A stretch of 64,000 nt of DNA from Candidatus Uhrbacteria bacterium (GCA_016188355.1 JACPHY010000001.1:38125-102124), one strand, 5' to 3'. Shown: positions 4,301-52,254, counted from the stretch's first letter. Notes: generated from the letters alone by a model not told the origin. Program-made: numbers and translations.

Positions 4301-4306
4301 AAATGA

Positions 4307-5668
4307 ATGACGGAAGAGTGTATCTTCAGCTTACCTTACATGCGTTTTCTCATCGATGGCCCTACTACAATTCACGGTAGCATTTCGGTCGCGGGGGCGA
4401 AGAATGCGGCGCTCCCGTTTCTTGCGGCATCCATTCTCCTGGATGCGCCGTTGGAAGTGCATCGGGTACCGATGATTGAGGATGTGCACCGCATGCTCGA
4501 GATCGCGCATCGGCTTGGAATAGCGATTGATGCGGTCGCTCCTGGTGTCTATCGGCTTACTGCTGCTGGATGTACGACGAGCGAGCTTCCTGCAGACCTG
4601 ACCCCGAAGCTGCGCGCGGCAATTATTTTTACGGGACCGCTGCTCGCGCGTTGGGGATCGACGGTGCTCCCGCAGCCCGGAGGATGCACGATTGGTCAGC
4701 GTCCGATCGATCTTTTTTTAGATGGATTCCGCGCATTCGGAGTAACCGTCACCGAGGAGGCGGCAGGGACTCGATTTACGGGGAAGCCGCGATCGGCACG
4801 ATACGTATTTCCGTTGGTGAGCGTGACCGGTACCGAGACGCTGCTCTTGCTCGCCGTGCGAACGCCCGGAGTTTCGGTGCTCGAGAATGCGGCCATGGAA
4901 CCCGAGGTGACCGCACTGGCGCAATTGCTCCAATCCTGCGGCGCGCATATCGAAGGGATCGGCACGCCCACGCTGGTGATTCGCGGCGTGGAGCATCTTT
5001 CGGGTGGGGTGGTGACCTGTATTCCGGATCGCATTGAGACGGGTGCGTTCGCGGCGCTGGTCGCCGCATGCGGCGGGTCGCTCGAAATTCGTGATTGTGA
5101 TCCCACGCAAATAGCGGTTCCCCTCAAACTCCTCGAGGACATGGGGGCAACCATTGCGACCGATGCCACTGCCGGAGTCATCCGCATCAGCGCGCAACTG
5201 CCGTTGCGTGCGATTTCCATTCGGACCCATGAATACCCGGGATTGCCGACGGATCTGCAGCCGCCGTTCACGGTCGCACTCACCCAGGCGAGTGGGCTGG
5301 CGTTGGTGCATGAAACGATTTACGAGGGTCGTCTGTTCTACGTTGATAAATTGAACAAGATGGGGGCGAATATTACCTTATGCGATCCGCATCGTTGCCT
5401 CGTGGCGGGGCCTCGTCCGCTGCACGGTGCGCGTCTCGAATCGCCGGATATCCGTGCTGGTATCGCGCTCCTCATTGCTGCCGCATGCGCGACTGGTCGG
5501 AGCGTCATTGAAAACGTGTACCAAATTGATCGAGGGTTTGAGCGCATTGAGGAGCGCCTTCGGGATATCGGGGTGCGTATTCAGCGAGAAGAAGAGGGGG
5601 CACACCAGCCTAGTGCGCCCATCGCACTGCCTGATTCTCGATCGCCGCAGGGGGTGGTAGGCTACTAG
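4307..5668 (+). CDS. murA: UDP-N-acetylglucosamine 1-carboxyvinyltransferase (start possibly ATG 4340)
   Basis: MRFLIDGPTTIHGSISVAGAKNAALPFLAASILLDAPLEVHRVP... is the canonical MurA N-terminus. Full-length ~440 aa. Confidence 0.9.
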   Translation: MTEECIFSLPYMRFLIDGPTTIHGSISVAGAKNAALPFLAASILLDAPLEVHRVPMIEDVHRMLEIAHRLGIAIDAVAPGVYRLTAAGCTTSELPADLTPKLRAAIIFTGPLLARWGSTVLPQPGGCTIGQRPIDLFLDGFRAFGVTVTEEAAGTRFTGKPRSARYVFPLVSVTGTETLLLLAVRTPGVSVLENAAMEPEVTALAQLLQSCGAHIEGIGTPTLVIRGVEHLSGGVVTCIPDRIETGAFAALVAACGGSLEIRDCDPTQIAVPLKLLEDMGATIATDATAGVIRISAQLPLRAISIRTHEYPGLPTDLQPPFTVALTQASGLALVHETIYEGRLFYVDKLNKMGANITLCDPHRCLVAGPRPLHGARLESPDIRAGIALLIAAACATGRSVIENVYQIDRGFERIEERLRDIGVRIQREEEGAHQPSAPIALPDSRSPQGVVGY

Positions 5669-6939: not shown

Positions 6940-7383
6940 ATGCAGGTCATTCTGCTCCGTAATGTCGCAGGTGTCGGTAGTGAGGGAGAGACGCATGATG
7001 TTGCCGAAGGATATGCGCGGAATTTTCTCTTCCCGCAACATTTAGCGGTTCCGGCAACTCCTGCGGCGCAGCAACAGGTTGCCGCGCGCGCAGCGGCAGA
7101 GCGACGTCAGGCAGAGCGGGAATTGCAGGAGCTCCAAAAGCTCGCGGCGGCGTTGGATGGATTCGAGCTCGTCATGTCCGTTCCCGCGACCGGCGCGGGA
7201 AAACTGTACGGTGGCATTGGGGCTGCTGCATTGGTGACGGCATTGGCTCGTGCGGGATTTACGGTGGATCCCGAGTGGGTGCTGCTTCCAGAGCCCATGA
7301 AAGAAGCGGGTGAGCATGTGGTCCGTTTGCATTTGCCACATGGGTTGGAGGCCGAGGTGACGGTGGTGGTGGATGGGGAGTAA
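6940..7383 (+). CDS. rplI: 50S ribosomal protein L9
   Basis: [40 protein letters not shown]... matches the L9 N-domain consensus. ~147 aa. Confidence 0.85.
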
Positions 7384-7562
7384 TGGCGGCGTGTTTCCCG
7401 AGGATCTGCGGGTGTGGACATGTGGCCAAGGATCCCTTGCTACGATGCATACAGGGTGGGATGTGTGTGGCGAGTTGTTTGCGGTATGACCTCCGGTCCC
7501 TGTGACAGCGGGCGTCTTTTTTATGTGTCCGCATCAAGAGGAGTGGGTTGGATGAGGGTGGT

Positions 7563-9233
7563 ATGACGAAATACATCTTTGTCGTTGGCGGAGTCATGTC
7601 GGGTGTGGGGAAGGGGACGGTCACGGCGTCGCTGGGAACAGTGCTCCAGGGGAAGGGATTCCGGGTGACCGCGATGAAAATCGATCCCTACGTCAATGTG
7701 GATGCGGGGACCATGAATCCCATCGAACATGGGGAAGTGTTCGTGACGGATGATGGTGATGAAACTGATCAGGACATCGGATCGTACGAGCGGTTTCTCG
7801 GACAATCGCTCGGGAAGGTGAACTACATGACGACGGGGCGCGTGTATCAAACCGTGATCGCGCGTGAGCGGAATCTCGAATACGAGGGACGGTGCGTTGA
7901 GGTCGTGCCGCACATCCCCGAGGAGGTCATTCGGCGCATTGATGCGTGCGCGGCGACGCGTGACGCGGAGATCGTGCTCATTGAAGTGGGGGGGACGGTG
8001 GGTGAATATCAGAATGTGCTGTTTTTGGAAGCGGCACGACTCCTGAAGTTGGAACGACCCAAAGATGTCGTGGTGATGCTCGTCTCCTATCTCCCGGTAC
8101 CAGGGCATATCGGTGAGATGAAAACAAAACCAACGCAACACGCGACGCATCTCCTCCAAGCGGCGGGGATTCAGCCGGATTTTATTGTGGCGCGCGGTGA
8201 GCGCGAGTTGGATGCACCGCGACGACGGAAGCTCTCCATGTTCTGTAACGTCGGGCCTGATGATGTGATCGCAGCTCCCGATGTGGCATCGACGTACGAG
8301 GTGCCGATCAATTTTGACCGGGAGGGGGTTGGTGATCGGGTGTTGCGCAAGTTGGGGCTTCGGCCGCGACAGCGGGATCTCTCGGCCTGGAAGGGACTGC
8401 TCGATCGCATCGCCACCGCAACTGATGAGGTCCATATTGCGGTTGCGGGGAAGTATTTTTCTACTGGGAATTTCGTCCTCTCCGATGTGTACCTTTCCGT
8501 GATCGAAGCGATTCGCCATGCGGCATGGGCGGAGGGGAAAAAACCGGTGCTCACGTGGTTGAATACGGAAGTGTACGAACAAGATGCGACGGCGCTTGCG
8601 GAATTGGATGCGTTCGACGGCGTCATTATTCCTGGGGGATTTGGCTCGCGTGGCGTTGATGGGAAAATTCGCGCGATCCAGTATCTTCGTGAACATCGCA
8701 TTCCGTACCTGGGATTGTGCTATGGCATGCAGCTCGCCTGTGTGGAGTTCGCGCGCAATGTGCTGCAGCTCCGCGGAGCACACACCACGGAAATTGATGC
8801 GGACACGAAGTACCCGGTGATTGCGCCCATGACCGATCAGATTGCGAAACTCAAGGCGGCGGCATTTGGCGGGACGATGCGGCTTGGTGCCTATGCGTGT
8901 CGGGTGCAACGGAAGACGATCGCGGCAAGTGCCTACGCAGGAACTCCTGTCGTGCAGCGCTCGTACGCGAATGGCGACCTGGTCATCGCGGAGCGTCATC
9001 GCCATCGGTACGAATTCAATAACGCATTTCGAAAGCAATTTGTGGCGGGCGGGCTGGTCATCGCCGGGGTCCATCCTGAGCGTGATCTTGTGGAGATCAT
9101 TGAGCTACCGAAAACGGTGCACCCATTCTTTGTGGGAGTGCAATACCATCCGGAGCTTATCAGTCGACCATTGCAGCCGCACCCACTCTTTGTCGCGTTC
9201 ATACGTGCGGCGGGTGCGCGAACCACATCGTGA
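7563..9233 (+). CDS. pyrG: CTP synthase (ORF is open from 7548; ATG at 7563 gives the canonical MTKYIF start)
   Basis: MTKYIFVVGGVMSGVGKGTVTASLGTVLQ... Glutamine amidotransferase domain with GLCYGMQ. Confidence 0.92.
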   Translation: MTKYIFVVGGVMSGVGKGTVTASLGTVLQGKGFRVTAMKIDPYVNVDAGTMNPIEHGEVFVTDDGDETDQDIGSYERFLGQSLGKVNYMTTGRVYQTVIARERNLEYEGRCVEVVPHIPEEVIRRIDACAATRDAEIVLIEVGGTVGEYQNVLFLEAARLLKLERPKDVVVMLVSYLPVPGHIGEMKTKPTQHATHLLQAAGIQPDFIVARGERELDAPRRRKLSMFCNVGPDDVIAAPDVASTYEVPINFDREGVGDRVLRKLGLRPRQRDLSAWKGLLDRIATATDEVHIAVAGKYFSTGNFVLSDVYLSVIEAIRHAAWAEGKKPVLTWLNTEVYEQDATALAELDAFDGVIIPGGFGSRGVDGKIRAIQYLREHRIPYLGLCYGMQLACVEFARNVLQLRGAHTTEIDADTKYPVIAPMTDQIAKLKAAAFGGTMRLGAYACRVQRKTIAASAYAGTPVVQRSYANGDLVIAERHRHRYEFNNAFRKQFVAGGLVIAGVHPERDLVEIIELPKTVHPFFVGVQYHPELISRPLQPHPLFVAFIRAAGARTTS

Positions 9234-9268
9234 TTTGGTGTGGTCGCACGAAGGTGATGACATCGTAC

Positions 9269-9296
9269 GCACCCGCCCTCCATGGAGGGCGGGTGC
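9269..9296. terminator. Perfect 12-bp-stem palindromic hairpin (gcacccgccctc/catg/gagggcgggtgc) between convergent pyrG and rpmA. Putative bidirectional terminator (no U-tract).
   Basis: Self-complementary sequence read directly. Sits between two convergent gene ends. Confidence 0.5.
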
Positions 9297-9321
9297 GTGA
9301 TGCTGGAGTAACGGAGTCCGC

Positions 9322-9615
9322 TTATGCGGCGCGTTCGGTTGCGGGGACGACCGAGATGATGCTGCGGAGGTTCCGGGTGCCGTTGAAACCAATTTTTGTG
9401 CGAGTCGTGAATCGGACGATGCCATCGGCTATGGCGAAGAGCGTGTCATCGCTCCCCATGGCCACGTTCGTTCCTGCGCGGAATTTGGTGCCGCGCTGGC
9501 GAATGATAATACCTCCGGCGCGAATGGATTCGCCGTCATTCACCTTCACGCCGAGGCGTTGTCCGTGTGAGTCGCGTCCAAGACTGGTAGAGCCGCCTGC
9601 CTTTTTATGTGCCAT
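9322..9615 (-). CDS. rpmA: 50S ribosomal protein L27
   Basis: [25 protein letters not shown]...[18 protein letters not shown] is the L27 consensus. Confidence 0.9.
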
Positions 9616-9834
9616 ACTATTGCGTGCGCGTCCTCCCGCTGCCGATCGGCGTTCGGGAATGTCTGGGGCCGGCGGGGGTGGAATTTGCCGGCGGTACCGC
9701 GCTCAATTGCGATGAGGGTATTGCATCATGGGATGGGATAACCGTCAAGTCATGCGGGGGACGGCGTACCCAAACACGTGACCATTGTGGTACGCTCTCC
9801 TCTGAGGTGCGTTGTCGCACCTGTTTCTGTATTA

Positions 9835-10005
9835 GACCTGTTGCCCAATAGGTTTCGTCGCGAAATCTGCAGCGTTCGAATGGGAGGGATCCCTCGGCAG
9901 TCCTCGGGATAAACTCCAGAAGAGCAGGGCTCTTTTGAGTATTTTTTTGAAGCGTTGCAGCCGAACGCTGCAGATTGCAGCAGAAAACCTATTGGGCAAC
10001 AGGTC
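9835..10005. repeat. 171-bp imperfect palindrome: 44-nt arms (21 + 14 perfectly paired, 9-nt internal bubble) around a ~83-nt loop. MITE-like or large regulatory stem-loop in the divergent rpmA / membrane-protein intergenic region.
   Basis: Left arm gacctgttgcccaataggtttcgtcgcgaaatctgcagcgttcg. Right arm cgaacgctgcagattgcagcagaaaacctattgggcaacaggtc. Confidence 0.6.
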
Positions 10006-10018
10006 TATTGGTGATCAT

Positions 10019-10456
10019 GTGGCTCATCTGACTGGACGATCGCTCCGTGAGGTATGTCGGATCCTGGGTGCGCACCCGGGAGCACGATGGCTGCTCCTGG
10101 TTGCAGTGGTTTGCACTGCGGGTACATGGATTACGGTTTTGGCAATCCCGAGGATTCCGGGTAACGACACCGTGGTGACGCATTATTCCACCACATTTGG
10201 CATTGATGCGTTGGGCGCCTGGCGGCAACTCTTCCGACTGCCGAGCATTGCCACGATTCTGTTGGGTATGAATGTGGGTATCGCCGTCGCGAGTATTCGG
10301 GCGACACGACCGGATGCGCACCCTGTGCCCCTTCTCCCGCCGGCGGCACAGACCATGCTCATTGCATCGGCACTCTTGAGTGCCGTGGCGCTCGTGGGAG
10401 CGCTCTTCTTGCTCCGGGTGAATCTTCATTATTTCGGAAGCTCGGGTGCGATATGA
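10019..10456 (+). CDS. Hypothetical polytopic membrane protein (ORF open from 9935, but that part overlaps the palindrome; GTG 10019 is a plausible start). Stop overlaps the mraY start (ATGA).
   Basis: Several hydrophobic helices (WLLLVAVVCTAGTWITVLAI, IATILLGMNVGIAVASI, MLIASALLSAVALVGALFLL). Translationally coupled to mraY. Confidence 0.45.
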   Translation: MAHLTGRSLREVCRILGAHPGARWLLLVAVVCTAGTWITVLAIPRIPGNDTVVTHYSTTFGIDALGAWRQLFRLPSIATILLGMNVGIAVASIRATRPDAHPVPLLPPAAQTMLIASALLSAVALVGALFLLRVNLHYFGSSGAI

Positions 10457-11514
10457 TCACGCCGGATCCAGTCGTGCAGGCAACCGGACGGGTGTTCCTC
10501 CTGACCGCCGCAGCATTCGTGGTCACCATGGCGTGGACGCCACTGCTGGCGCGTTTGTTGTACCGCTACAAGCTTGGCAAGAATATCCGTCTCGCTTCCG
10601 ACGCGCCGGTATATGCGAAGCTGCATGCGCATAAGGCAGGGACGCCCACCATGGGCGGCGTGCTCATCTGGGTGACGATGCTGGCATTCGCGGGTTTTTT
10701 CGCACTCGCTGCCGCATTCCACATCCCGGGATTGCGCATCCTCCATTTCGTGAATCGCGAAGAGACGCTCTTGCCGCTCGGGGTGCTCCTTGCTACCGCG
10801 GTGGTGGGCCTGGGAGATGATCTCATGAACATCTTTCGGATTGGTCCGAAAGGGGGGGGATTGCGGATGCGGCATCGGGTGGTCCTGTACGCGGCGATTG
10901 CGGCGGTGGGGGCATGGTGGTTCGTGGATAAGCTCGAATGGACGACCACGCGCATTCCGTTTGTGGGGCCGGTCGATTTGGGGTGGTGGTTTGTGCCGTT
11001 TGCGATACTGGTGCTGTTTGCGACCGCGCACTCCGTCAATTTGATTGATGGCCTCGATGGTCTCGCCGGGGGAACGGTGCTCACGGCGTACGGCGCGTAT
11101 GGGGCAATCGCGTTCGTGGAGGGACGGTACCATCTCGCCGCTTTTATTGGGGTGCTCGTGGGAAGTTTGCTTGCATTTTTGTGGTTCAATATTCCTCCAG
11201 CGCGATTCTTCATGGGAGATACCGGAGCCATGCCACTCGGTATTACGCTTGGGGTCATCGCACTGCTCACGAATGAACCCTTCCTGCTGTTTATCATTGG
11301 ATTCCCCTTTGTCCTGGAGTCGCTCTCAGTGATTGCACAGATGATGGCACGGCGTTGGTGGGGACGTCGTCTTTTCCGATCGTCGCCGCTGCATCATCAT
11401 CTTGAGGCGATGGGATGGCCAGAATCGAAAATCGTCATGCGATTTTGGGTGATTTCCGGTGTCATGGCAGTGGTGGGGCTCACGATATTTCTCCTGGATC
11501 GTAGTGCGTGGTAG
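10453..11514 (+). CDS. mraY: Phospho-N-acetylmuramoyl-pentapeptide transferase
   Basis: N-terminus and conserved DDxxN-containing loops (GLGDDLMNI..., HSVNLIDGLDGLAGG). Confidence 0.9.
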   Translation: MITPDPVVQATGRVFLLTAAAFVVTMAWTPLLARLLYRYKLGKNIRLASDAPVYAKLHAHKAGTPTMGGVLIWVTMLAFAGFFALAAAFHIPGLRILHFVNREETLLPLGVLLATAVVGLGDDLMNIFRIGPKGGGLRMRHRVVLYAAIAAVGAWWFVDKLEWTTTRIPFVGPVDLGWWFVPFAILVLFATAHSVNLIDGLDGLAGGTVLTAYGAYGAIAFVEGRYHLAAFIGVLVGSLLAFLWFNIPPARFFMGDTGAMPLGITLGVIALLTNEPFLLFIIGFPFVLESLSVIAQMMARRWWGRRLFRSSPLHHHLEAMGWPESKIVMRFWVISGVMAVVGLTIFLLDRSAW

Positions 11515-11526
11515 CGGCAGCCGCGT

Positions 11527-12675
11527 ATGCGTACGTGGAAATTGATGGAAGGGGAGCGGCAATTCATGATTGCGCTTGGGGTATTGGTGGTGCTGGGATT
11601 GTTGTTTCTCTCCTCGGCGAGTGCGCCGCTCGCGTATGAGCGGTTCGGCAATCGTTCCACATATGTGCTCCATCAGTTGACCTCCGGGATCCTCCCGGGC
11701 ATTGCGGCGTTTTTCTGCATGCGGAAGGTGCGCACCTCGTTTTTGCAGCGCGCGGCCATTCCGTTGCTCGTGGGGAGTGTAGCGTTGCTGGTGCTCATTT
11801 TCGTTCCGGGCCTCGGAGAAGCGCACCAGCGGACGCGGAGCTGGCTGTCGCTGGGTCCGCTAACGTTCCAGCCGGCAGAAATAGCAAAACTAGGACTCAT
11901 TCTGGCGCTCGCGGCATGGGCGACCGTGCGTCGGCCGGAATGGTTCGTCCTCACGTCTTGGTGGCGCGGGTTGGTGCCGTTTCTCCTCGTGTTCGGCACC
12001 GTGGCGGGTCTGGTTGCTGTGCAGCCTGACGTGGGTACCATGTCGATTCTCACCGCGATCGCGATCGGTATGGCGATTGCCTCCGGCCTGCGTTGGATGC
12101 ACCTTGGTGCATTGGTGGTTGGCGTGGTGGGGGTGATCGGAGCCCTCATCGCCGCGGCACCCTATCGGCTCGCGCGGCTGACCGTGTTTCTCCATCCCGA
12201 ACTCGATCCGCGCGGGATTGGGTATCAGGTGAATCAGGCGCTTTTGGGAATTGGATCTGGCGGAGTGTTCGGGGTGGGTTTGGGGCATTCTCGTCAGAAG
12301 TTCTCGTTCCTCCCTGAGGTGATTTCGGATTCCATTTTTGCGATTATTGCCGAGGAAATAGGATTTTTGGGGTCGTTGGCTTTTATCGCGGTGTTGGTTT
12401 GGGTGATTGCACTGGTGCTGCGCAGGGCCATGACGGCGACCGATGCATTTGAGCGTCTCGTGCTCGTCGGGATCGCAGCCTGGTGGGGATCGCAGTCAAT
12501 CGTGAATATCGGGGCGATTATTGGACTGCTCCCGCTGACCGGTTTACCGTTGCCTTTCGTGAGCTATGGGGGGACGTCCATGGTCGTGGCACTGGCTGCA
12601 GCGGGGATTGTGGCACAGGTATATGCACGCGACCGCGCCGGAGAGCGGGTGCGGGGATCATGGCGGAGGAATTAA
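11527..12675 (+). CDS. ftsW: SEDS-family peptidoglycan glycosyltransferase FtsW/RodA
   Basis: 10 TM pattern. Conserved PEVISDSIFAIIAEEIGFLG and LPLPFVSYGGTS motifs. Confidence 0.85.
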   Translation: MRTWKLMEGERQFMIALGVLVVLGLLFLSSASAPLAYERFGNRSTYVLHQLTSGILPGIAAFFCMRKVRTSFLQRAAIPLLVGSVALLVLIFVPGLGEAHQRTRSWLSLGPLTFQPAEIAKLGLILALAAWATVRRPEWFVLTSWWRGLVPFLLVFGTVAGLVAVQPDVGTMSILTAIAIGMAIASGLRWMHLGALVVGVVGVIGALIAAAPYRLARLTVFLHPELDPRGIGYQVNQALLGIGSGGVFGVGLGHSRQKFSFLPEVISDSIFAIIAEEIGFLGSLAFIAVLVWVIALVLRRAMTATDAFERLVLVGIAAWWGSQSIVNIGAIIGLLPLTGLPLPFVSYGGTSMVVALAAAGIVAQVYARDRAGERVRGSWRRN

Positions 12676-12676
12676 C

Positions 12677-12838
12677 GAGACCTCTGCAAACATCCCGATT
12701 CGCTCCAGGAACGCGCTGCTCGGCTGCGCTGCGTTCCTCGACCGTTCACGAGATCCGCTGGATATCGCTCGGGTCTGCGTCGCGCAGCTCGCTCGAGCAC
12801 CACGTCCCTGGCGCGAAAGCGATTATTGTGGAGGTCTC
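12677..12838 (+). mobile_element. Full-length 162-bp MITE-like repeat element with ~38-bp terminal inverted repeats (gagacctctgcaaa...tttgtggaggtctc). Fills the ftsW-murG intergenic space exactly: starts 2 nt after the ftsW stop and ends 6 nt before the murG ATG.
   Basis: ~93% identical to 59370-59531. Shorter or partial copies at 44884-44945 and 1030-1063. Arms are reverse-complementary. Confidence 0.75.
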
Positions 12839-12844
12839 TCGGAT

Positions 12845-13951
12845 ATGCACGTCTTGTTCGTGGGCGGAGGCACATTGGGTTCCGTTACTCCACTCCTTGC
12901 GATTGTGGAGGAGTTGCGCGACCGTGTGCACGGGGTGCGGTGTTCGTGGTGGGGCACACGATTGGGGCCGGAGCGCGCAGTTATTGCCGCCGCAGGAATA
13001 CCATTTCGTGCAATTCCATCCGGAAAGTTTCGTCGATATTGGGATCTGCAGCAGATGATAGACCCATTCCGCATCCTCGCCGCGGGCGTGGTCGCCCTGG
13101 CGCGGTTGTCGCGTGATCGCCCCGATGTGGTGGTGGGAGCTGGCGCATTTGTGCAGGTGCCGGTGATGTGGGCGGCGCGGCTCCTCCGTATTCCGGTCAT
13201 GATCCACCAACAGGACGTACGGCCTGGACTGGCGAATAAACTCGTGGCGCCCATCGCACAGATCATCACGGGAGTGTTCCCCGCACATGTGGTTGCGTTT
13301 GGGGCGCGGCCGGTGCGTATCGTGGGGAATCCCGTGCGTCGTGCAATGCGCTCCATGAGTTCGATTTCGTCTGGACAAGCCAAGCAGCTGTTGGGATTCC
13401 CACCGCATTTGCCGCTCGTGCTGGTACTGGGTGGAGGAACGGGAGCGCAGGCGCTCAATGTGCTGGCTCACGCTGCACATGGTGTATGGAAGCAGGCGAG
13501 CTTCCTTGTGGTGACTGGGCGCGGGAAGCGTGTGGTGGATCCACCGACGCCTCCACTGGGCAGTAGTAGTTCTGGGGGCGTCGTGACGTATCGGGAAGAA
13601 GAATTCCTCGACGCCGAAACGCTGGTGCTTGCCTATACGGCAGCGGATGTCGTGGTGAGTCGCGCAGGCATGGGAACGGTCACGGAATTGGGCGTGCTGG
13701 GAAAGGTGATGGTGCTCGTGCCGATGCCGGGCACGCATCAAGAGGATAACGCGGCAGCGATTGGGATGCGGCAGGCGGCGGTCGTGTGGAAGCAGCAGGA
13801 GATCACACCGGAGGAGTTCGCGCGTCAAATTCGGGCACTGCTCGCTGATCCGTCGCGAGGTGTTGCATTAGCGGCATCGGCGCAGGCACTGTTTCCTGCG
13901 CATGCCGCGACGCGGAGCACGGAGTTGTTGCTTACGTTGGTGTCGGAATGA
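12845..13951 (+). CDS. murG: Undecaprenyldiphospho-muramoylpentapeptide beta-N-acetylglucosaminyltransferase (the ORF track extends upstream to 12566 across the repeat; real start MHVLFVGGG at 12845)
   Basis: MHVLFVGGGTLGSVTPLLAI... GT28 N- and C-domains. Position after ftsW. Confidence 0.88.
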   Translation: MHVLFVGGGTLGSVTPLLAIVEELRDRVHGVRCSWWGTRLGPERAVIAAAGIPFRAIPSGKFRRYWDLQQMIDPFRILAAGVVALARLSRDRPDVVVGAGAFVQVPVMWAARLLRIPVMIHQQDVRPGLANKLVAPIAQIITGVFPAHVVAFGARPVRIVGNPVRRAMRSMSSISSGQAKQLLGFPPHLPLVLVLGGGTGAQALNVLAHAAHGVWKQASFLVVTGRGKRVVDPPTPPLGSSSSGGVVTYREEEFLDAETLVLAYTAADVVVSRAGMGTVTELGVLGKVMVLVPMPGTHQEDNAAAIGMRQAAVVWKQQEITPEEFARQIRALLADPSRGVALAASAQALFPAHAATRSTELLLTLVSE

Positions 13952-23136: not shown

Positions 23137-23709
23137 ATGTTGCGTGTGCTCGCGATTGCCGATCGGCCACCACGTCGGCCGATTGCGGAGATTCTTGCGG
23201 AACAATCGATTGATTGTATTGTGACGTTAGGCGATTTGGGTCTTGCGGAGTTGCGAGGATTGGGGGGCGTCACCGGTATTCCGAAGTGGGGAGTGTATGG
23301 GAATCACTGTTCGGGTACTTATTTTCCGGAACTCGGAATCTCCAATCTCCATTGCCGTACGGTTTCGCTGCACGGGGTGACCTTTGGCGGATTTGAGGGA
23401 TCGGTGCGGTACAAAGAGAGTCCATATAGTAAGATGTATACCCAGGAGGAAGCGGCATCGTTGTTGGCTGATTTCCCGCGGGTGGATGTGATGTGCGTGC
23501 ATTGTCCTCCGTACGGTATCAATGACGAGCCAGACGATCTCGCGCACCAGGGATTCCGTGCATTGCGCACCTACTGCGAACAGCAGCGGCCGCGGTATCT
23601 GTTGCACGGGCACACCTATCCCACGGAGCAGCAGCTCGTGCGTCGATATCAGGACACGGAAATAGTGTACGTTTTTAGTGACCGAGTGATTGAGTTGGAT
23701 TTGGCGTAG
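23137..23709 (+). CDS. Calcineurin-like metallophosphoesterase (YfcE/MJ0936-like). Start ATG overlaps the ftsI stop.
   Basis: Motifs LGDLG, GNHC, MCVHCPPYG, GHTY are consistent with the MPP superfamily. The longer ORF from 23008 is out-of-frame read-through of the ftsI 3' end. Confidence 0.65.
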   Translation: MLRVLAIADRPPRRPIAEILAEQSIDCIVTLGDLGLAELRGLGGVTGIPKWGVYGNHCSGTYFPELGISNLHCRTVSLHGVTFGGFEGSVRYKESPYSKMYTQEEAASLLADFPRVDVMCVHCPPYGINDEPDDLAHQGFRALRTYCEQQRPRYLLHGHTYPTEQQLVRRYQDTEIVYVFSDRVIELDLA

Positions 23710-25046: not shown

Positions 25047-25124
25047 GCCGCCATCGTCTAGCCCGGTCTAGGACGTCGCCCTCTCACGGCGAAAACACCG
25101 GTTCAAATCCGGTTGGCGGTACCA
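25047..25124 (+). tRNA. tRNA-Glu (anticodon CUC), CCA encoded
   Basis: GCCGCCATCGTCTAGCCCGGTCTAGGACGTCGCCCTCTCACGGCGAAAACACCGGTTCAAATCCGGTTGGCGGTACCA. Close match to the tRNA-Glu scaffold (TCGTCTAG...CCCTxTCACGGCG...GGTTCxAATCC). Anticodon loop CTCTCAC. Confidence 0.85.
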
Positions 25125-25231
25125 AAAGAGTATTTGACGACCAATACCACCCACGCGAGGGTGGTATTGGTTTTGTTGCACTAGAGCATCGCCAGTGTTA
25201 TTATGTTCCTGCTTTGCGAAAGGAGAGGGCA

Positions 25232-25534
25232 ATGGATCATGGCGAAGTGTTGAGCGACCCTACGGCGTACCTCACGTACGCGCGGAATGCGGATTGCAGT
25301 GATGCCCAGCAATTCCAGCGACTCGTACGGGATGGCATGGCGATTGCGGGTTGCGAGTCAAAAGTGCTGGCGCGCGAATTCGGAACTTCGCTGCCGACCG
25401 TGGCGCGGTGGAAGCAGGGTGTCACAGCGCCGGCGCGATTTTTGCGCCCGAAGATTGTGGCATTTCTCGTGCAGTTGGTGGAACGGCGGCTGGCGCAGAC
25501 GACGGACGGAGATCGTACGCCGCCCAAGGCATGA
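25232..25534 (+). CDS. XRE-family helix-turn-helix transcriptional regulator (~100 aa)
   Basis: Strong SD aggagagg 4 nt upstream of ATG. HTH segment LAREFGTSLPTVARWKQGVTAP is typical of Cro/C1-type HTH. Confidence 0.65.
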   Translation: MDHGEVLSDPTAYLTYARNADCSDAQQFQRLVRDGMAIAGCESKVLAREFGTSLPTVARWKQGVTAPARFLRPKIVAFLVQLVERRLAQTTDGDRTPPKA

Positions 25535-25570
25535 CCTGGGGCGGCGTTCCATGTTGTAATGGGAGACGTT

Positions 25571-26914
25571 ATGCCTGACATGGACCATTTTTTGGATTTG
25601 CCGTATCAAGAGCGCCGGTGGGCGAATCTGGTGCTCACGTTGCCTCAAGCAACGGTGCTTTCCGCTGCGTACACATTTGCACGTGATGCGCACGCCACGC
25701 AGACGCGGAAGGGGAGTCCTGCGCTTCCGTATATTATTCATCCGATGCGGGTGGCGCTGGCGCTCATCGAGGAGTACCGCATTGATGATGCGGCAGTGAT
25801 TGCTGCTGCATTACTTCATGATGTGGTGGAGGATTGTGGGGTCGCGGCGGAGGTGATTCGTCGGGAGTTTGGTGGGCGTGTGGGTGATTTGGTGGCGGAG
25901 CTCACCTGGCCACGGGATCGTATGGCGATGTGGGAGCGTGCAGTGGCCTTGCCGCGCGCGTCGCATGCCGTCCGCATGGTGAAGGCCGCCGATATCATCG
26001 ATAACCTGCGTGATCTCGGATGCACCGCATCGGTTCCTCGTCCGGCAGTATTGCGGAGCGTGTACGGATACGCGCGTTGGGGGCGTGCCTTGCTTACCAC
26101 ATTGGATGCCCGTGCGCAGGAGCAATTTACGGAGGCGCTCGCGGTGGTACGTCGAGTGCATGGTGGGGATGATGGTGCACTGCCGCTGCCGCCGAATCCA
26201 GAAAAAGAATGTCGCATCGTGCTTCCGGATGGGGTATCCGTCGATCGGTATCCGGTTCGGACGCACCTCGTTCGTCCCGCGGATGAGGTACTCGCGTTGG
26301 TGCGTCAGTATGCGATTGCGCATTGCCAATGGGGCGACCTCCTTGCCATTTCTGAGCGCGTCGTTGCTATTACCCAGGGCCGTGCGTATCCCCTTGCGGA
26401 GATCCATCCATCCTGGTGGGCGAATTTCCTTGTTCGGTTTGTCCACAAATCGAAATATGGGATCGGGCTGGGATCGCCATGGACCATGGAACTTGCCATT
26501 CGGGAGGCGGGTCTCCCGCGCATGTGCGTCGCTGCTTTCGCTGCGGCGATGACGAAGCCACTGGGCATTCGTGGCGTATTTTATCGGGTGGTGGGGAAGC
26601 ACATTAATGCAATCGATGGTCCCTGCGACTACACATTGCCGATCGCGGATTCCGATACAGCGGGCAAGCCGACACAGGGAAGCGGGTATGCCAAGCTCGG
26701 TCCCAAAGATCCGGATGGCGTGGCACAGCGCATCGCACGGGAAATTGGCGTGGATGTGGCGATCATTGATGCGAATGATCTCGGGGTGAATGTGCTCGGT
26801 GCATCCGATGGGGTGGATCGCGCATTCGTTGCAGCGGCATTTCGCGACAATCCCCTCGGGCAAACGAATGAGCAGACGCCCATGGCAATCGTGCGGCGCG
26901 CGACATCGGTATGA
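25571..26914 (+). CDS. Fusion protein: N-terminal HD-domain phosphohydrolase (RelA/SpoT-type HD_4) plus C-terminal CofE-like (F420-0:gamma-glutamyl ligase family, PF01996-like) domain. ORF open from 25559.
   Basis: HPMRVALALIEEYRIDDAAVIAAALLHDVVED (HD motif). C-terminal AISERVVAITQGRAYP..., DPDGVAQRIAREIGVDVAIIDANDLG resembles the CofE NAGID/DP...VAVIIxD regions. SD gggaga upstream of ATG 25571. Confidence 0.6.
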   Translation: MPDMDHFLDLPYQERRWANLVLTLPQATVLSAAYTFARDAHATQTRKGSPALPYIIHPMRVALALIEEYRIDDAAVIAAALLHDVVEDCGVAAEVIRREFGGRVGDLVAELTWPRDRMAMWERAVALPRASHAVRMVKAADIIDNLRDLGCTASVPRPAVLRSVYGYARWGRALLTTLDARAQEQFTEALAVVRRVHGGDDGALPLPPNPEKECRIVLPDGVSVDRYPVRTHLVRPADEVLALVRQYAIAHCQWGDLLAISERVVAITQGRAYPLAEIHPSWWANFLVRFVHKSKYGIGLGSPWTMELAIREAGLPRMCVAAFAAAMTKPLGIRGVFYRVVGKHINAIDGPCDYTLPIADSDTAGKPTQGSGYAKLGPKDPDGVAQRIAREIGVDVAIIDANDLGVNVLGASDGVDRAFVAAAFRDNPLGQTNEQTPMAIVRRATSV

Positions 26915-27432
26915 CGCAGCTCGTGGTGGTGTGCGGATTGCCGGGCACCGGAAAAACTACGCTCGCGCAGGCGCTTGCGGCGCGTTGGCATTGGCCATGT
27001 TTCAGTAAAGATGCAACCTGCAAAGAGCCGCTCTACGAGTTGCTCGGCGGATCCACTCTGGAGGAGAGTCGTCGTTTGGGGAGCGTGGCGATTCAGATGC
27101 TCCTGCGTATGGTGGAGATGCAACTGCGCTATGGCGTTTCGTGCATTGTGGAGGCCCCATTTCAGTATTCGGAGGATGGTGTCCGTTTTGCGCAATGGGC
27201 GGAGGAGTATGGCGTCGCGATCACCTGCGTCGTCTGTACCGTGGATGAGGAGGAGCGGTTGCGTCGATTTCGATCACGCACGCGACATCCGGCACATCAT
27301 GATGCAGATCGGACACCACATGCGGCGCATGCGGTGCCCTATCACTCGTTTCCGGGTGAGCTAATCTGGTTGGATACCGCACAGCCCCTGGAGGACGTGA
27401 TCGGTGCGGTCGAGCGTCAGGTTTCGAGGTAA
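26911..27432 (+). CDS. P-loop kinase (AAA_33 / zeta-toxin / gluconokinase-like NTPase). Start overlaps the stop of the upstream gene (ATGA).
   Basis: Walker A VVVCGLPGTGKTTLAQAL. Walker B-like CIVEAPF. ~170 aa, typical of AAA_33 small kinases. Confidence 0.65.
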   Translation: MTQLVVVCGLPGTGKTTLAQALAARWHWPCFSKDATCKEPLYELLGGSTLEESRRLGSVAIQMLLRMVEMQLRYGVSCIVEAPFQYSEDGVRFAQWAEEYGVAITCVVCTVDEEERLRRFRSRTRHPAHHDADRTPHAAHAVPYHSFPGELIWLDTAQPLEDVIGAVERQVSR

Positions 27433-27459
27433 TTAGCAGTCGCTTGACGAGACTGCTAA
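27433..27459 (+). promoter_or_regulatory. CIRCE-like operator (HrcA binding site): TTAGCAGTC-N9-GACTGCTAA, perfect 9-bp inverted repeat, 16 nt upstream of hrcA
   Basis: Matches the CIRCE consensus TTAGCACTC-N9-GAGTGCTAA with a C/G swap in each arm. Location immediately upstream of the hrcA-grpE-dnaK-dnaJ operon. Confidence 0.75.
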
Positions 27460-27475
27460 TCTCGGTACGATAGGG

Positions 27476-41325: not shown

Positions 41326-41805
41326 GTGCGTATGGAAGGCCCTCTGCCGGAGCATGCCCGTGGACTCGAACGAGTGGATCATGCGCTCGATCGGCGTGAA
41401 AATCAGGCGGGACCGGTAGCGGTGGAGCGCATGGCGGACCGCGCAGCAAGTGCTGCCCCGGTTGCGCCGCCGGCCGCCCCGGTTGCGCAGGCGGCTGCTC
41501 CGCAAAAATCGCCGCTGCGTGAGGAGATTGAGCAGGCGCTCGCAGATGATCGACTCCGAAAATTGTATCTCCACCTCGCACCGGCGGTGCAGGCGAGTTT
41601 TCGTGAAGCGGCGCTGCGGCTTGCGGAGCGCATCGAGCGTATGCTCGCGAGCGGAAAACTGGATATTCATGATCTCCATGAGGGGATTACGAATTGGCTT
41701 CGCGTCATTCCGAATGTAAATCGGTGGTTTCTGCTGCAGGAAGCCAAAGTGAAGACCGACGCTATCCTCGTACTTCAAGCGAAACGCACCGCTGCTCGTG
41801 GGTGA
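41326..41805 (+). CDS. Hypothetical protein (Ala/Pro-rich N-terminus, helical C-terminus). Alternative start ATG 41431 with SD ggtggag.
   Basis: ORF immediately upstream of and co-oriented with the VirD4-like ATPase (stop 41805, next start 41814). Confidence 0.35.
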   Translation: MRMEGPLPEHARGLERVDHALDRRENQAGPVAVERMADRAASAAPVAPPAAPVAQAAAPQKSPLREEIEQALADDRLRKLYLHLAPAVQASFREAALRLAERIERMLASGKLDIHDLHEGITNWLRVIPNVNRWFLLQEAKVKTDAILVLQAKRTAARG

Positions 41806-41813
41806 GCTGTCCT

Positions 41814-44249
41814 GTGCCCATTGATTTCCTCATCGCCGCCATCGTGCTCCTCCTCGCGATCGTGTGTATCGTTGTGGTGCTGTTTATTGTTCGTGCGATT
41901 GCGCGTCGCTCCGCCATGCTGCGCGCCGCCTTCGATCTCGTGGTGCTCCAGGTGTTGGTGCCAAAGGATGCGCAGGGTGGCGACAAAGGAGATCAAAGCA
42001 TTCAAAAAATTCAAGAGGCGATCGCGAAAACGGAAGTATTTTTTACGTCGATCGGCGGGCTTCGTGCGCAGCGGGGCATGGGTTCTTGGTTTCGCGGTCG
42101 TACGGATCACATCGCATTTGAAATCGTGGCCCATGACGGCCAGGTGAAGTTTTTTGTTGCCGTCCCGAACGCCTTGCGCTCCTTTTTGGAGGAGCAATTG
42201 CATGCGCAACGATCAGACGCGTACATTGATGTCGCCAGGGATTACAACATCTTTCAACCGACCGGCGTGGTGCTGGGTACGACGCTCACCCTGAAACGGT
42301 CGGGGTATTTTCCAGTGAAATCATATAAGAAGTTGGACGCGGATCCGCTGGATGGACTCACGAATGCAATGAGCAAGGTCACGGAACTCGAGGGAGCAGC
42401 GATCCAGCTGGTGGTGCGCTCTGCGCGGAAGGAGTGGCGATCGGGAGGGGTGAGCATTGCGTCGAAGATGCAGCAGGGAAAGACGCTCGACGAGGCGATG
42501 GGCGGTGGATGGATGTCCGGACTCTGGAAGAGTGTGGGGGCGGCATCGGGAACGGCATCCAAACAACCGGAAAAAATACACCAGCTGTCGCCGATGGAGC
42601 AGGAGATCGTGAAAGGGCTCGAAGAGAAGGCGGCGAAGTTTGGGGTGGACGTGAATGTACGGGTGCTCGTGTCCGCAGAAACGAACGACCGAGCCAAAAC
42701 GCTGCTGGCCTCCATCACGCAGGCATTCGCGCAGTACAACATTCCGCAGTACGGCAACATGTTTGTGACCGGCGGCACATCCTCTGCGCCGAAACTCATC
42801 GAGCAGTTCATCTACCGGAAATTTGATGAGAAGAAGCGGTTGGTGCTCAACGTGGAGGAGATGGCGAGTGTGTGGCACTTGCCGCTGCCGACAACGGAAA
42901 CTCCGACGGTGCAATGGCTGTCCTCCCGTCGGTTGCCGCCGCCCGTGAACATGCCGCAGGAGGGTGTGATCCTTGGAGAGTCCAACTACCGAGGGAAACG
43001 GGTGCTCGTGCGTTTGAAGCGCGCGGATCGGCGTCGGCACGTGTACGCCATTGGAGGTACGGGGACAGGAAAAACGACGGTCATGGAGAACATGTGTGTG
43101 CAAGATATCCGGGCGGGGGAGGGGGTGTGCGTCATTGACCCGCACGGCGAATTTGCGGAGCACATGCTGGCGAACGTCCCGAAAGAGCGCGCGGATGACG
43201 TGATCTATTTCGATCCGTCGGATGTGGAGCGCCCTCTGGGACTCAACATGCTTGAGGCGGATACGCCAGAGGCGCAGGATTTTGCCACGCAGGAAATGGT
43301 GGCCATTTTCTATAAGCTCGTCACGGATCCCTCCATGATTGGTCCGATGTTTGAGCATTACATGCGGAATGCGATGCTCACGCTCATGTCCGATCCGAAA
43401 AATCCGAGCACCATCGTGGAGATCCCGCGCATTCTCACCGATCCAGAGTTCCAGAAGCTCAAATTAAAGAACGTTACCGACCCGATTATTCGGGCGTTCT
43501 GGGAAAAGGAATTGCCGCAGACTTCCGGTCAGACCAAGGGAGAGATGCTGCCATATTTGGTTTCGAAGATTGGGCGATTCCTCGAAAATACGATGATGCG
43601 GAATATTATCGGGCAGCAGCGCTCCGCGTTCGATTTTCGGCAGATCATGGATCAAAAGAAAATCCTGCTCTGCAACTTGAGTAAGGGAAAGATCGGTGCC
43701 ATGAACTCAGATCTCCTAGGACTCATCATCATCACGAAGCTCCAAATGGCTGCATTGGCGCGTGCGAATGTGCCGGAGGATCAGCGACCGGATTTTTTCT
43801 GCTACATGGATGAGTTCCAGAATTTTATTACGGATTCCATCGCGATCATTCTTTCCGAGGCACGGAAATACCGTCTGGACCTCATCATGGCACACCAGTA
43901 CATCGCACAGCTGGTCAAAAGCAATGATACGCGCGTGCGTGATGCGGTGTTTGGCAACGTCGGGACCATTATCTCCTATCGTATCGGTGTAGATGATTCT
44001 GAATTGATCGCGAAGCAACTGGCGCCAGTAGTGTCGGAATTCGATGTACTGAATATCGAGAAGTTCAATGCGTATGCACGCATCATGATCGACAACACTG
44101 CACAGAAAGCATTCAACATGCGGGTGTTCGCCCCTTCATTTGGCGATCAGCGGATGTTCGATGCGCTACGTCAGCTGTCTCGACTGAAGTACGGTCGCGA
44201 TCGCGCTATTGTCGAGACGGAAATTTTGGAACGATCGCAGCTCGGGTGA
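41814..44249 (+). CDS. Membrane-anchored VirD4/TraG/TraD-like (type IV coupling protein / FtsK-HerA superfamily) ATPase with a ~350-aa N-terminal extracytoplasmic/unknown domain. GTG start; ORF open from 41694.
   Basis: N-terminal TM IDFLIAAIVLLLAIVCIVVVLFIV. Walker A HVYAIGGTGTGKTT. DPHGEF (T4CP DPxGE). Walker B FFCYMDEFQNF. C-terminal helical lid. Confidence 0.6.
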   Translation: MPIDFLIAAIVLLLAIVCIVVVLFIVRAIARRSAMLRAAFDLVVLQVLVPKDAQGGDKGDQSIQKIQEAIAKTEVFFTSIGGLRAQRGMGSWFRGRTDHIAFEIVAHDGQVKFFVAVPNALRSFLEEQLHAQRSDAYIDVARDYNIFQPTGVVLGTTLTLKRSGYFPVKSYKKLDADPLDGLTNAMSKVTELEGAAIQLVVRSARKEWRSGGVSIASKMQQGKTLDEAMGGGWMSGLWKSVGAASGTASKQPEKIHQLSPMEQEIVKGLEEKAAKFGVDVNVRVLVSAETNDRAKTLLASITQAFAQYNIPQYGNMFVTGGTSSAPKLIEQFIYRKFDEKKRLVLNVEEMASVWHLPLPTTETPTVQWLSSRRLPPPVNMPQEGVILGESNYRGKRVLVRLKRADRRRHVYAIGGTGTGKTTVMENMCVQDIRAGEGVCVIDPHGEFAEHMLANVPKERADDVIYFDPSDVERPLGLNMLEADTPEAQDFATQEMVAIFYKLVTDPSMIGPMFEHYMRNAMLTLMSDPKNPSTIVEIPRILTDPEFQKLKLKNVTDPIIRAFWEKELPQTSGQTKGEMLPYLVSKIGRFLENTMMRNIIGQQRSAFDFRQIMDQKKILLCNLSKGKIGAMNSDLLGLIIITKLQMAALARANVPEDQRPDFFCYMDEFQNFITDSIAIILSEARKYRLDLIMAHQYIAQLVKSNDTRVRDAVFGNVGTIISYRIGVDDSELIAKQLAPVVSEFDVLNIEKFNAYARIMIDNTAQKAFNMRVFAPSFGDQRMFDALRQLSRLKYGRDRAIVETEILERSQLG

Positions 44250-51521: not shown

Positions 51522-51595
51522 TGCGGGGTCGGCTAACGGTAGGCCGCGACGCTCTGGACGTCGTTATCCTGGTTCGAATCCAGGCCCCGCAGCAT
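51522..51595 (+). tRNA. tRNA-Gln (anticodon CUG), U1-A72, discriminator G. CCA not encoded; 3' end approximate.
   Basis: TGCGGGGTCGGCTAACGGTAGGCCGCGACGCTCTGGACGTCGTTATCCTGGTTCGAATCCAGGCCCCGCAG. Cloverleaf with anticodon stem CGACG/CGTCG and loop CTCTGGA. Confidence 0.75.
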
Positions 51596-51615: not shown

Positions 51616-52254
51616 ATGACTTCTGATGTATCCATGGCCCCGGATCGTCTGACTGCGCTCACCGACTTCATCTACGAGGTGGGCATTTTGAGTAAGACGC
51701 CGCGATCGGGATTGTGGTTTCTTGGTACGGGTCAACAGAGCGTCGCAGAGCACCTCCTGCGTACTGCGTATATTGGATATGTGTTGAGCCACCTCACGCC
51801 GGAAGCGGATCGTGCTCGGGTGCTGCTCATGTGTCTCCTCCACGATTTGGGAGAGGGCCGGACTTCCGATTTGAATTACGTGCATCAGCGATACGGGCGT
51901 CTTGCAGAGGCGCAGGCAGTTGCTGACATCGCCGCGCGCACGCCATTTGGAGCAGAAATTGAAGAGCTGTATCGAGAAGAATCCGCGCGCGCTACGCTGG
52001 AGGCGAAGTTGGTCAAAGATGCGGATCAGCTCGAATGGATCGCGACGCTGCGCGAGGAAGAAGTGAAGGGGAATCAAAAGGCGGCTTCTTGGCTGAAGAG
52101 CAGCATCCAACGGCTGAAGACGCCGGCAGGGCAGCAGATCGGCCAAATGCTCCTCACGACCCACCCCGATCATTGGTGGTACGACGAGGCGGACGCGTGG
52201 TTCGTGGATCGAAAGGAGGAGCATCGGAAGCGCGCCGTGGAGAGGTCTCTGTAG
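51616..52254 (+). CDS. HD-domain phosphohydrolase (YfbR-like 5'-deoxynucleotidase family)
   Basis: HxxxH...HD pattern: SVAEHLLRTAY...LLHDLGEGRTSD...DADQLE. Confidence 0.7.
   Translation: MTSDVSMAPDRLTALTDFIYEVGILSKTPRSGLWFLGTGQQSVAEHLLRTAYIGYVLSHLTPEADRARVLLMCLLHDLGEGRTSDLNYVHQRYGRLAEAQAVADIAARTPFGAEIEELYREESARATLEAKLVKDADQLEWIATLREEEVKGNQKAASWLKSSIQRLKTPAGQQIGQMLLTTHPDHWWYDEADAWFVDRKEEHRKRAVERSL

Follow-up and report, generated by a model that had tools for sequence, protein, structure and literature searches.

The locus described here lies in a 64,000-nucleotide stretch of Candidatus Uhrbacteria DNA (GCA_016188355.1, JACPHY010000001.1:38125-102124, hereafter "the window"). There, a gene downstream of a tRNA-Glu gene encodes a protein in which an HD phosphohydrolase domain of the Mesh1, or small alarmone hydrolase (SAH), type is joined to a domain with the fold of CofE, the F420 gamma-glutamyl ligase. 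This SAH-CofE-like fusion is a real and undescribed domain architecture, and a vertically inherited chromosomal gene of one small Uhrbacteria group. A first-pass annotation had proposed that it forms, with a putative XRE regulator and a zeta-like kinase, a tripartite toxin-antitoxin-like module inserted at a tRNA gene, a proposal that the comparison of related loci does not sustain. With a probability of about 0.55, we favour instead a bifunctional housekeeping enzyme, which would combine a (p)ppGpp-type 3′/2′-(pyro)phosphatase with a nucleoside triphosphate (NTP)-dependent amide ligase working on an acceptor other than F420. Any particular substrate that might be named for it is doubtful.

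The fusion open reading frame (ORF) runs from the ATG at 25571, with a GGAG 6 nt 5′ of it, to 26914, and encodes 447 amino acids; an alternative ATG at 25559 gives 451. The joining of an HD to a CofE-like domain stands. The 447-residue protein is 100% identical to the NCBI entry [quoted passage not shown] (P0001). AlphaFold2, run on the alignment of the fusion, returns a confident two-domain model (predicted local distance difference score, pLDDT, 90.9; predicted template modelling score, pTM, 0.89), and the two parts are laid out as follows:

25571..26185, + strand: N-terminal domain of the fusion, a Mesh1/SAH-type HD phosphohydrolase by Pfam, MESH1 alignment and Foldseek, residues about 1-205
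26201..26914 (stop codon included), + strand: C-terminal domain of the fusion, of CofE fold, in a divergent branch of PF01996

No description of an HD-CofE fusion was found in the searchable literature, in line with what had been supposed from the sequence. Ten distinct loci carry it, all on contigs of Candidatus Uhrbacteria type: the window; L001; L002; L003/L004; L005; L006/L007/L017/L102/L103; L008; L098/L099; L100; and L101. A metagenome scan with the HD-domain profile gave two fusion loci, both of the known P0009 lineage, and no new ones.

The assignment of the N-terminal domain to the RelA/SpoT type of HD hydrolases is upheld, and it can be narrowed to the Mesh1/SAH class. The fusion protein scores 44.8 bits with HD_4 (PF13328, cut-off 27.2) in Pfam, and it matches TIGR00691 spoT_relA with an E value of 6e-20 that is confined to the HD region. 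The domain aligns with residues 5-167 of the 178 in the chain of human MESH1/HDDC3 (3nr1; E 1e-17, 32% identity), and Foldseek retrieves 3nr1, 5vxa and 6yvc (MESH1 and the P. aeruginosa SAH) with target-normalised TM scores of 0.79-0.81. Neither Pfam nor NCBIfam gives any synthetase-domain match in the fusion protein. The motifs PYIIHP, LLHDVVED and ADIIDNLRDL align with MESH1 (pattern RKxxxxPYIxHP, LLHDxVED, ADxxxNLRDL), and HP, LLHDVVED and ADIIDN show little or no variation across the 17 full-length fusion proteins aligned. They hold the HP histidine, the HD dyad, the ED pair and the distal Asp-x3-Asn, which we take to be catalytic and metal-binding residues of MESH1. Judged by these motifs, the SAH-type hydrolase site of the N-terminal domain is intact.

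Like MESH1/HDDC3, the P. aeruginosa SAH, C. glutamicum RelH and XccSAH, the domain aligns end to end, carries the same motifs and comes without a synthetase. Unlike them, it is covalently fused to a CofE-fold domain and belongs to a lineage without a close stand-alone relative; unlike those SAHs that are set in toxin pairs, it has no toxic synthetase partner here. The apparent close HD matches P0129-P0131 are truncated members of the fusion family, and after removal of such fragments the nearest full-length non-fusion match stands at E 2.5e-24. Known SAH/MESH1 substrates are the 3′-pyrophosphate of (p)ppGpp and (p)ppApp, pppApp, and the 2′-phosphate of NADPH, the NADPH phosphatase activity being common to bacterial and metazoan SAHs (PMC9765508). 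MESH1 also removes the 3′-phosphate of CoA (PMC13221220), and MESH1 and another SAH remove the 3′-pyrophosphate from the CCA end of toxin-modified tRNA (bioRxiv 10.1101/2021.04.30.441581). The HD-domain search also returned P0268, a protein of 544 amino acids in which a Mesh1-like HD domain is followed by a C-terminus resembling, by eye, CoaB/PPCS (phosphopantothenoylcysteine synthetase); such a fusion would fit the reported CoA-phosphatase activity of MESH1.

The C-terminal domain proves CofE-like, as first proposed: the fusion protein scores 31.2 bits with F420_ligase (PF01996), above the curated cut-off, and Foldseek matches the domain to A. fulgidus CofE. Its identity to CofE is 18-25%, and its relatives are stand-alone proteins of some 230-270 amino acids that are about 50-64% identical to it. 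A scan of one genome per species found such a relative, at 53-64% identity to the domain, in at least 555 species, and the best 80 loci were analysed. These come mostly from the Candidate Phyla Radiation (CPR; Parcubacteria, Saccharibacteria, Kaiser-, Nomura-, Magasanik-, Falkow-, Roizmanbacteria and others), the non-CPR carriers being Armatimonadota, WOR-3, Thermotogota, Bacteroidota and Bacillota. The gene stands alone in 79 of the 80; the last is HD-fused and of the same lineage as L006. The branch has about 40 invariant positions and its own motifs (GIGLGSPWTMELA, AIDGP, DANDLG, DNPLGQ and EQTP), and the fused domains keep every invariant residue of the stand-alone family. By its residue conservation, the C-terminal domain is placed in a large, strongly conserved branch of the CofE fold with an uncharacterised function.

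This branch differs from CofE and from the N-domain of FbiB (PF01996, COG1478) in failing the equivalog model, in its own invariant motifs and in being typical of CPR and other F420-less bacteria, with no F420 genes near it. F420 biosynthesis genes were looked for in the 64-kb window, among the neighbours that recur across 87 loci and in the available DNA of the CPR carriers, and none was seen. The searchable literature yielded no paper on the branch, and a Saccharibacteria genetics paper with its supplements holds no F420, CofE or PF01996 term. Operon partners give little guidance: the 427 neighbours of the stand-alone gene in 87 loci fall into 319 clusters, the largest spanning 4-6 loci, and Pfam returns for the neighbours in non-CPR loci only the unrelated UDG, MotA, PdxT, BpsA_C, SBP, PGA_cap and GDE. 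Rfam finds only tRNAs near the fusion and the tested stand-alone CofE-like genes, and no riboswitch or leader that would reveal a ligand.

How is the fusion placed in its genomes? The window comes from the chromosome of a Candidatus Uhrbacteria (CPR/Patescibacteria) bacterium. The usual order is PBP2, murF, tRNA-Glu, fusion, a variable slot, then hrcA-grpE-dnaK-dnaJ. Upstream, murF (usually with PBP2 before it) is found in 7/10 fusion loci, and downstream hrcA-grpE(-dnaK-dnaJ) in 9/10. The tRNA-Glu(CTC) gene lies between murF and the fusion in the window, L001, L005, L006 and L008, on the opposite strand in the last. Around the fusion, the window holds these features:

25047..25124, + strand: tRNA-Glu gene, anticodon CTC (ARAGORN; Rfam tRNA, 59.7 bits)
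25139..25180, + strand: 14-bp hairpin followed by UUUUGUUG, the likely intrinsic terminator of the tRNA-Glu gene (folding, inverted repeat)
25232..25534, + strand: orphan ORF of 100 amino acids with a helix-turn-helix (HTH)-like motif, the earlier "XRE" gene (ORF, Shine-Dalgarno sequence, codon-position GC)
26911..27432, + strand: AAA_33 P-loop kinase of 173 amino acids (Pfam), facultative in the variable slot before hrcA
27433-27459, + strand: operator like the controlling inverted repeat of chaperone expression (CIRCE), TTAGCAGTC-N9-GACTGCTAA (consensus match)
27444-27471, + strand: promoter-like site TTGACG-16-TACGAT (promoter scan), overlapping the CIRCE-like operator

The three co-oriented + strand genes downstream of tRNA-Glu are recovered by ORF calls and ARAGORN just as first laid out, and the ATGA overlap of the kinase start with the fusion TGA is seen in the window sequence. 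What fills the slot changes from locus to locus. The AAA_33 kinase occupies it in 2/10, namely the window and its closest relative L001 (fusion 69%, kinase 59% identical). L003 has a convergent, bona fide folK (7353-7865; TIGR01498, 122.7 bits). L007 has a class-I glutamine amidotransferase (4081-4650), 5 bp after the fusion, whose best match, GMP synthase subunit A, is below cut-off. L002 has four genes (7661-13144), including a PRTRC-system protein A-like and a ThiF/E1-like one with a weak Cap2-like match, a set that looks like inserted mobile or defence genes. In L005, L008, L098 and L100 the slot is empty. The XRE-like ORF is present in the window only (1/10). The trio thus co-occurs nowhere else, which was the annotation's own test for abandoning the idea of a three-gene functional module, and the module is left unsupported. 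The kinase and the "XRE" ORF are occasional neighbours of the fusion, not a conserved system.

The kinase does belong to the AAA_33 type, with 72.5 bits for PF13671 (cut-off 27) and the Walker A motif GLPGTGKTT. Its description as zeta-toxin-like falls away: PF06414 gives 17.4 bits against a cut-off of 22.3, and no partner is conserved beside it. Among solved structures, 2rhm is its best relative (E 6e-18, residues 3-160), and the two share Walker A, SKD and RHP-x-H-x-D. We take 2rhm to be a "putative kinase" of Chloroflexus aurantiacus solved as a structural-genomics target; alike in its AAA_33 motifs, it is itself without a known substrate. Comparisons with Pnkp, zeta toxin, gluconate kinase, shikimate kinase and CoaE all stay at P-loop level or below cut-off, the phage polynucleotide kinase (PNK) phrog_505 matching at E 5.5e-6 and bacterial Pnkp at E 0.006. 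Homologues are few: a word search gives only seven, and tblastn over the related loci matches only L001 and L097, the latter homologue being 43% identical and placed after pyrG with no fusion nearby. The kinase is an accessory gene in a variable slot, and the fusion does without it in the other eight loci.

The 100-residue ORF had been called a Cro/C1-type HTH protein with a strong Shine-Dalgarno sequence. The ribosome-binding site is there (AAAGGAGAGGG, 5-7 nt 5′ of the ATG), while the HTH class is not secured: the best profile, HTH_28, reaches E 0.084 and 13.4 bits (cut-off 25), NCBIfam has no match, and the HTH-like motif SLPTVARWKQG was recognised by eye. The ORF is its own sole match among 5.8 billion proteins, and tblastn finds no counterpart in 181 related loci. 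Its strong Shine-Dalgarno sequence, HTH-like motif and codon-position GC, which is the same as that of neighbouring genes, together make it probably a real, genome-specific orphan gene that may encode an HTH protein.

Could the three genes nevertheless form a tripartite toxin-antitoxin or defence module at a tRNA hotspot, with the kinase as effector, HD-CofE as antagonist and XRE as regulator? The genes are co-oriented and tightly packed up to the ATGA overlap, SAH enzymes do act as antitoxins against toxic alarmone synthetases, the kinase gives weak Zeta_toxin and PNK-like matches, and the PRTRC/ThiF-like insert of L002 tells that the slot can receive foreign genes. Against this stand the scattered distribution of kinase and XRE-like ORF (2/10 and 1/10), the fixed place of the fusion in a housekeeping gene order beside a conserved tRNA-Glu gene, and the sub-threshold Zeta_toxin score. 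PADLOC matches neither the fusion nor the XRE-like ORF and reaches the kinase at P-loop level only, and the locus has no toxic alarmone synthetase. Pairs of toxic small alarmone synthetase and SAH (toxSAS-SAH, e.g., FaRel-ATfaRel) likewise contain an SAH-type hydrolase, of a class that detoxifies alarmones or pyrophosphorylated tRNA; unlike them, this locus is without a synthetase toxin, without a conserved two- or three-gene unit and without PADLOC support, and its context is chromosomal and housekeeping. Nor does the tRNA-Glu gene, adjacent as it is, mark an integration site, since the adjacency is ancestral synteny in relatives. No repeat of the tRNA-Glu 3′ end is present in the window; no attachment (att)-like repeats or integrase were found at the locus; and no compositional shift is seen, GC being 0.58-0.62 throughout and codon-position GC native. 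The C-terminal domain has no plasmid matches and, on the phage side, only two unannotated "Bacteriophage sp." contigs from gut metagenomes. With no plasmid match, att repeat or integrase, a mobile origin is rejected. A three-gene system would have been a new defence or toxin-antitoxin type; that is not so here, and such a module is very improbable.

Returning to the housekeeping enzyme, its N-terminal domain would act as an Mn2+-dependent HD phosphohydrolase removing a 3′-(pyro)phosphate or a 2′-phosphate from a nucleotide, with (p)ppGpp as the default substrate and NADPH, CoA and the pyrophosphorylated tRNA 3′ end as alternatives documented for the class. CofE uses GTP and two Mn2+ at a site in the dimer interface to activate a carboxylate/amide carbonyl and add L-glutamate (PMC10861534), and the C-terminal domain would correspondingly be a ligase that uses NTP (GTP) to activate a carboxylate and so makes an amide bond of gamma-glutamyl type on a housekeeping, non-F420 acceptor. 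The two activities could be coupled in either of two ways: the hydrolase may clear (p)ppGpp, a GTP analogue or inhibitor, and so regenerate GDP/GTP beside a GTP-using ligase, or both domains may act on the same phosphorylated nucleotide. We infer the substrates, the ligase activity and the coupling of the two domains.

Several observations weigh against this bifunctional enzyme. All fusions fall inside one 50%-identity cluster, and the two partners do not meet elsewhere: no CofE-like gene turns up within 5 kb in any of 78 other SAH-type loci (SAH or RelA/SpoT homologue, RSH), nor any SAH gene within 6 kb in the 79 stand-alone CofE-like loci. With a single cluster and no adjacency elsewhere, the fusion could be a lineage-specific accident that joins unrelated functions, and the functional link between HD and CofE, which the fusion itself argues for, is weakened. 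The kinship of the C-terminal domain to CofE is also remote. It fails the CofE equivalog TIGR01916 (23.7 bits, cut-off 180.65) as well as NF009809 (12.6, cut-off 274), and a search of the PDB with the branch profile finds CofE at an E value of about 0.01 only. The sole active-site motif that aligns is VIIDAN with VIITDTN of CofE, with Ala in place of Thr and with Asp and Asn retained. Given these scores and DAN for DTN, ligase activity is assumed from the fold. Lastly, the ATGA coupling in the window and the retention of the kinase in L001 suggest that the kinase may work with the fusion in both genomes, and it is tempting to think of a kinase/phosphatase pair that works on a single hydroxyl.

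What acceptor could a CofE-like ligase have in cells without F420? In Chlamydia, an organism without F420, CT611/FolC2 is a CofE homologue that complements a folC mutant of E. coli (PMC1971073, PMC4161248), and it is the only precedent for a CofE homologue acting outside F420, on folate. The branch resembles FolC2 in being a CofE homologue in organisms without F420. A further lead, and only that, is the N-terminal octapeptide of FolC2, MEITPIKT, taken from a published cloning primer, which is more like the P-[IV]-[RK]-T-H strand of the branch than P-V-E-G of CofE. Unlike FolC2, which lies inside a folate operon, the stand-alone gene has a folate gene near it in 0/80 loci and the fusion in 1/10 (the folK of L003); the 64-kb window has no folate genes, and the available part of the supplement to the 2007 folate paper contains no FolC2 entries. 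The case for folate as the substrate of the C-terminal domain is weak, a further point against the favoured enzyme.

Another possibility is that the CofE-like branch works on tRNA or in translation, the fused hydrolase being a 3′-(pyro)phosphatase that heals CCA ends and the kinase a PNK-like enzyme added in two genomes. A tRNA gene lies within 300 bp in 24/80 species-level stand-alone loci, as against 82/639 (12.8%) of other ORFs of these loci (Fisher p 1.5e-4), an adjacency that is only 2-3 times the local background and comes from phylogenetically non-independent loci. Of the 18 upstream tRNAs, 17 are co-oriented with the stand-alone gene; about ten tRNA identities occur, and some of the genes are embedded in tRNA clusters, where the gaps are 29-45 nt, a pattern that may also reflect co-expression with growth-rate-controlled tRNA promoters. 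The fusion itself follows tRNA-Glu, although in the window a strong terminator parts the tRNA from the genes. Other recurring neighbours are RNase III with NusB, GltX and an L34/RNase P cluster. MESH1 and another SAH do clear the tRNA 3′-pyrophosphate, and the presence together of kinase, phosphatase and ligase-type activities resembles RNA-repair logic; however, the kinase is usually absent and its matches to phrog_505 and Pnkp are below curated cut-offs, while CofE chemistry is known for small-molecule carboxylates only and no RNA-binding domain is present. The stand-alone domains are basic (median pI 9.2), which is uninformative because CPR proteomes generally are, high pI being common in those that are AT-rich. 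On balance, a tRNA/RNA-end system is unlikely. Bolder is the idea that the CofE-fold branch is an unrecognised translation- or tRNA-linked enzyme, and that the Uhrbacteria fusion and its PNK-like kinase mend or modify phosphorylated 3′ ends of tRNA or RNA, or a related nucleotide, through GTP-dependent carboxylate/amide chemistry; we know of no such chemistry on RNA, and consider this rather unlikely. Were the tRNA-end reading true, the Uhrbacteria fusion would be a Rosetta stone for the CofE-like branch. Examples of genes set in tRNA clusters among L017-L096 are L037 (5742-7180), L049 (5749-6894) and L032 (5727-7227).

Homeostasis of NAD(P) or other cofactors would make the HD domain an NADPH or CoA phosphatase whose product the kinase re-phosphorylates at the same position, the CofE-like domain amidating or glutamylating a cofactor carboxylate. 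The known activities of the class, on NADPH in bacterial and metazoan SAHs and on the CoA 3′-phosphate in MESH1, would suit it, as would the amidotransferase 5 bp after the L007 fusion and the by-eye PPCS/CoaB-like C-terminus joined to the Mesh1-like domain of P0268. In the Clostridia L013-L016, the stand-alone gene is found 33 bp 3′ of rex, which encodes a redox sensor, and is co-oriented with it, but this is one lineage only. The kinase is not NadK- or CoaE-like beyond the P-loop, and NAD or CoA genes are not among the recurring neighbours at the 80 stand-alone loci, so that we hold a cofactor role to be quite improbable. Much the same small chance goes to gamma-glutamyl chemistry of the cell envelope, in which a CofE-like enzyme would act on a peptidoglycan precursor or gamma-glutamyl polymer and the adjacency to murF and PBP2 would be functional. 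The fusion does come directly after PBP2 and murF in 7/10 loci; yet a tRNA gene and terminator separate it from murF. The few neighbours that recur beside the stand-alone gene include PBP2, MurG, M23 peptidases and 3D-domain-like proteins, each type, however, in at most 6/87 loci, and small CPR genomes are rich in cell-wall genes. The gene comes after PGA_cap (CapA family) in L082 and L084, L084 also having an NlpC/P60 hydrolase gene, but these two loci look closely related, with the same gene order, T-box and cyclic di-AMP (c-di-AMP) elements. None of the folate, tRNA, redox and envelope leads is strong enough to name a substrate.

What does the SAH-CofE-like architecture then tell us? Evidence is mounting that Mesh1-type hydrolases have roles beyond classical alarmone control, and this architecture is a further piece of it. 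It also points to a CofE-like family, 50-60% identical from phylum to phylum and present in hundreds of F420-less species, that is annotated as "F420 ligase" and is without a known function; a corrected annotation would touch thousands of genomes. Since CPR bacteria are gene-poor, a CofE-like gene that they retain is likely to matter. Three hypotheses for its substrate arise from the fusion partner, from FolC2 as a precedent and from the setting in tRNA clusters: folate, a 3′-phosphorylated nucleotide, or tRNA.

The signals around the locus give some idea of its transcription. The hairpin after tRNA-Glu folds with a free energy of -26.7 kcal/mol (z -5.6; 0/200 shuffles fold as well), although a simple terminator scan does not list it. 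With so strong a hairpin/U-run terminator behind the tRNA, the genes that follow would need, and probably have, their own promoter. By eye, a weak candidate, TTGCAC-17-TATTAT, is seen at 25177-25205, where the consensus scan made no call. The XRE-like ORF, the fusion and the kinase are probably co-transcribed in the window. An inverted repeat of 18 nt (25512-25552, 83% complementary, 5-nt loop) spans the stop of the XRE-like ORF, 5′ of the fusion start, and may serve as an operator or form an RNA hairpin between these genes.

Downstream, the CIRCE-like element is the one consensus match, with 2 mismatches, where 100 shuffles give none. Its arms form a perfect repeat, and a -35-like TTGACG lies inside its spacer, between the kinase stop and hrcA. 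The hrcA start, at 27476, falls just after the promoter-like site, and this position of the -35-like hexamer suggests a very short or leaderless hrcA transcript. A CIRCE element and promoter placed after the kinase stop mark hrcA-grpE-dnaK as a separate, HrcA-controlled unit, and thereby the downstream boundary of the locus. Membership of the fusion locus in the HrcA regulon was considered and rejected, the CIRCE element being 3′ of the kinase and the locus upstream of it.

Beyond the fusion, the stand-alone loci L082 and L084, labelled Ignavibacteriales and Deltaproteobacteria, have the same gene order, with a c-di-AMP riboswitch before NlpC/P60 and a T-box leader:

L082, 4341-4475 and 7624-7833: T-box and c-di-AMP elements (Rfam)
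L084, 4381-4513 and 7405-7615: T-box and c-di-AMP elements (Rfam)

These elements belong to neighbouring genes and not to the CofE-like gene. The shared features look Firmicutes-like, and for that reason the two bins may be mis-assigned.

Elsewhere in the window, an ORF of 190 amino acids (23137-23709) between PBP2 and murF has no Pfam or NCBIfam match and carries the motifs GDLG, GNHC and HGH, which by eye are metallophosphoesterase-like; L001 has at the same PBP2/murF position an equally long gene, likewise without a Pfam match. A VirD4/TrwB-like type IV coupling protein of 851 amino acids is encoded at 41694-44249 amid housekeeping genes, and CPR bacteria reportedly have a type IV secretion system related to conjugation machinery. 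A second protein of the HD superfamily, of the HD_3/YfbR-like 5′-deoxynucleotidase type, is encoded at 51616-52254, starting 23 bp after a tRNA-Gln gene (51522-51593).

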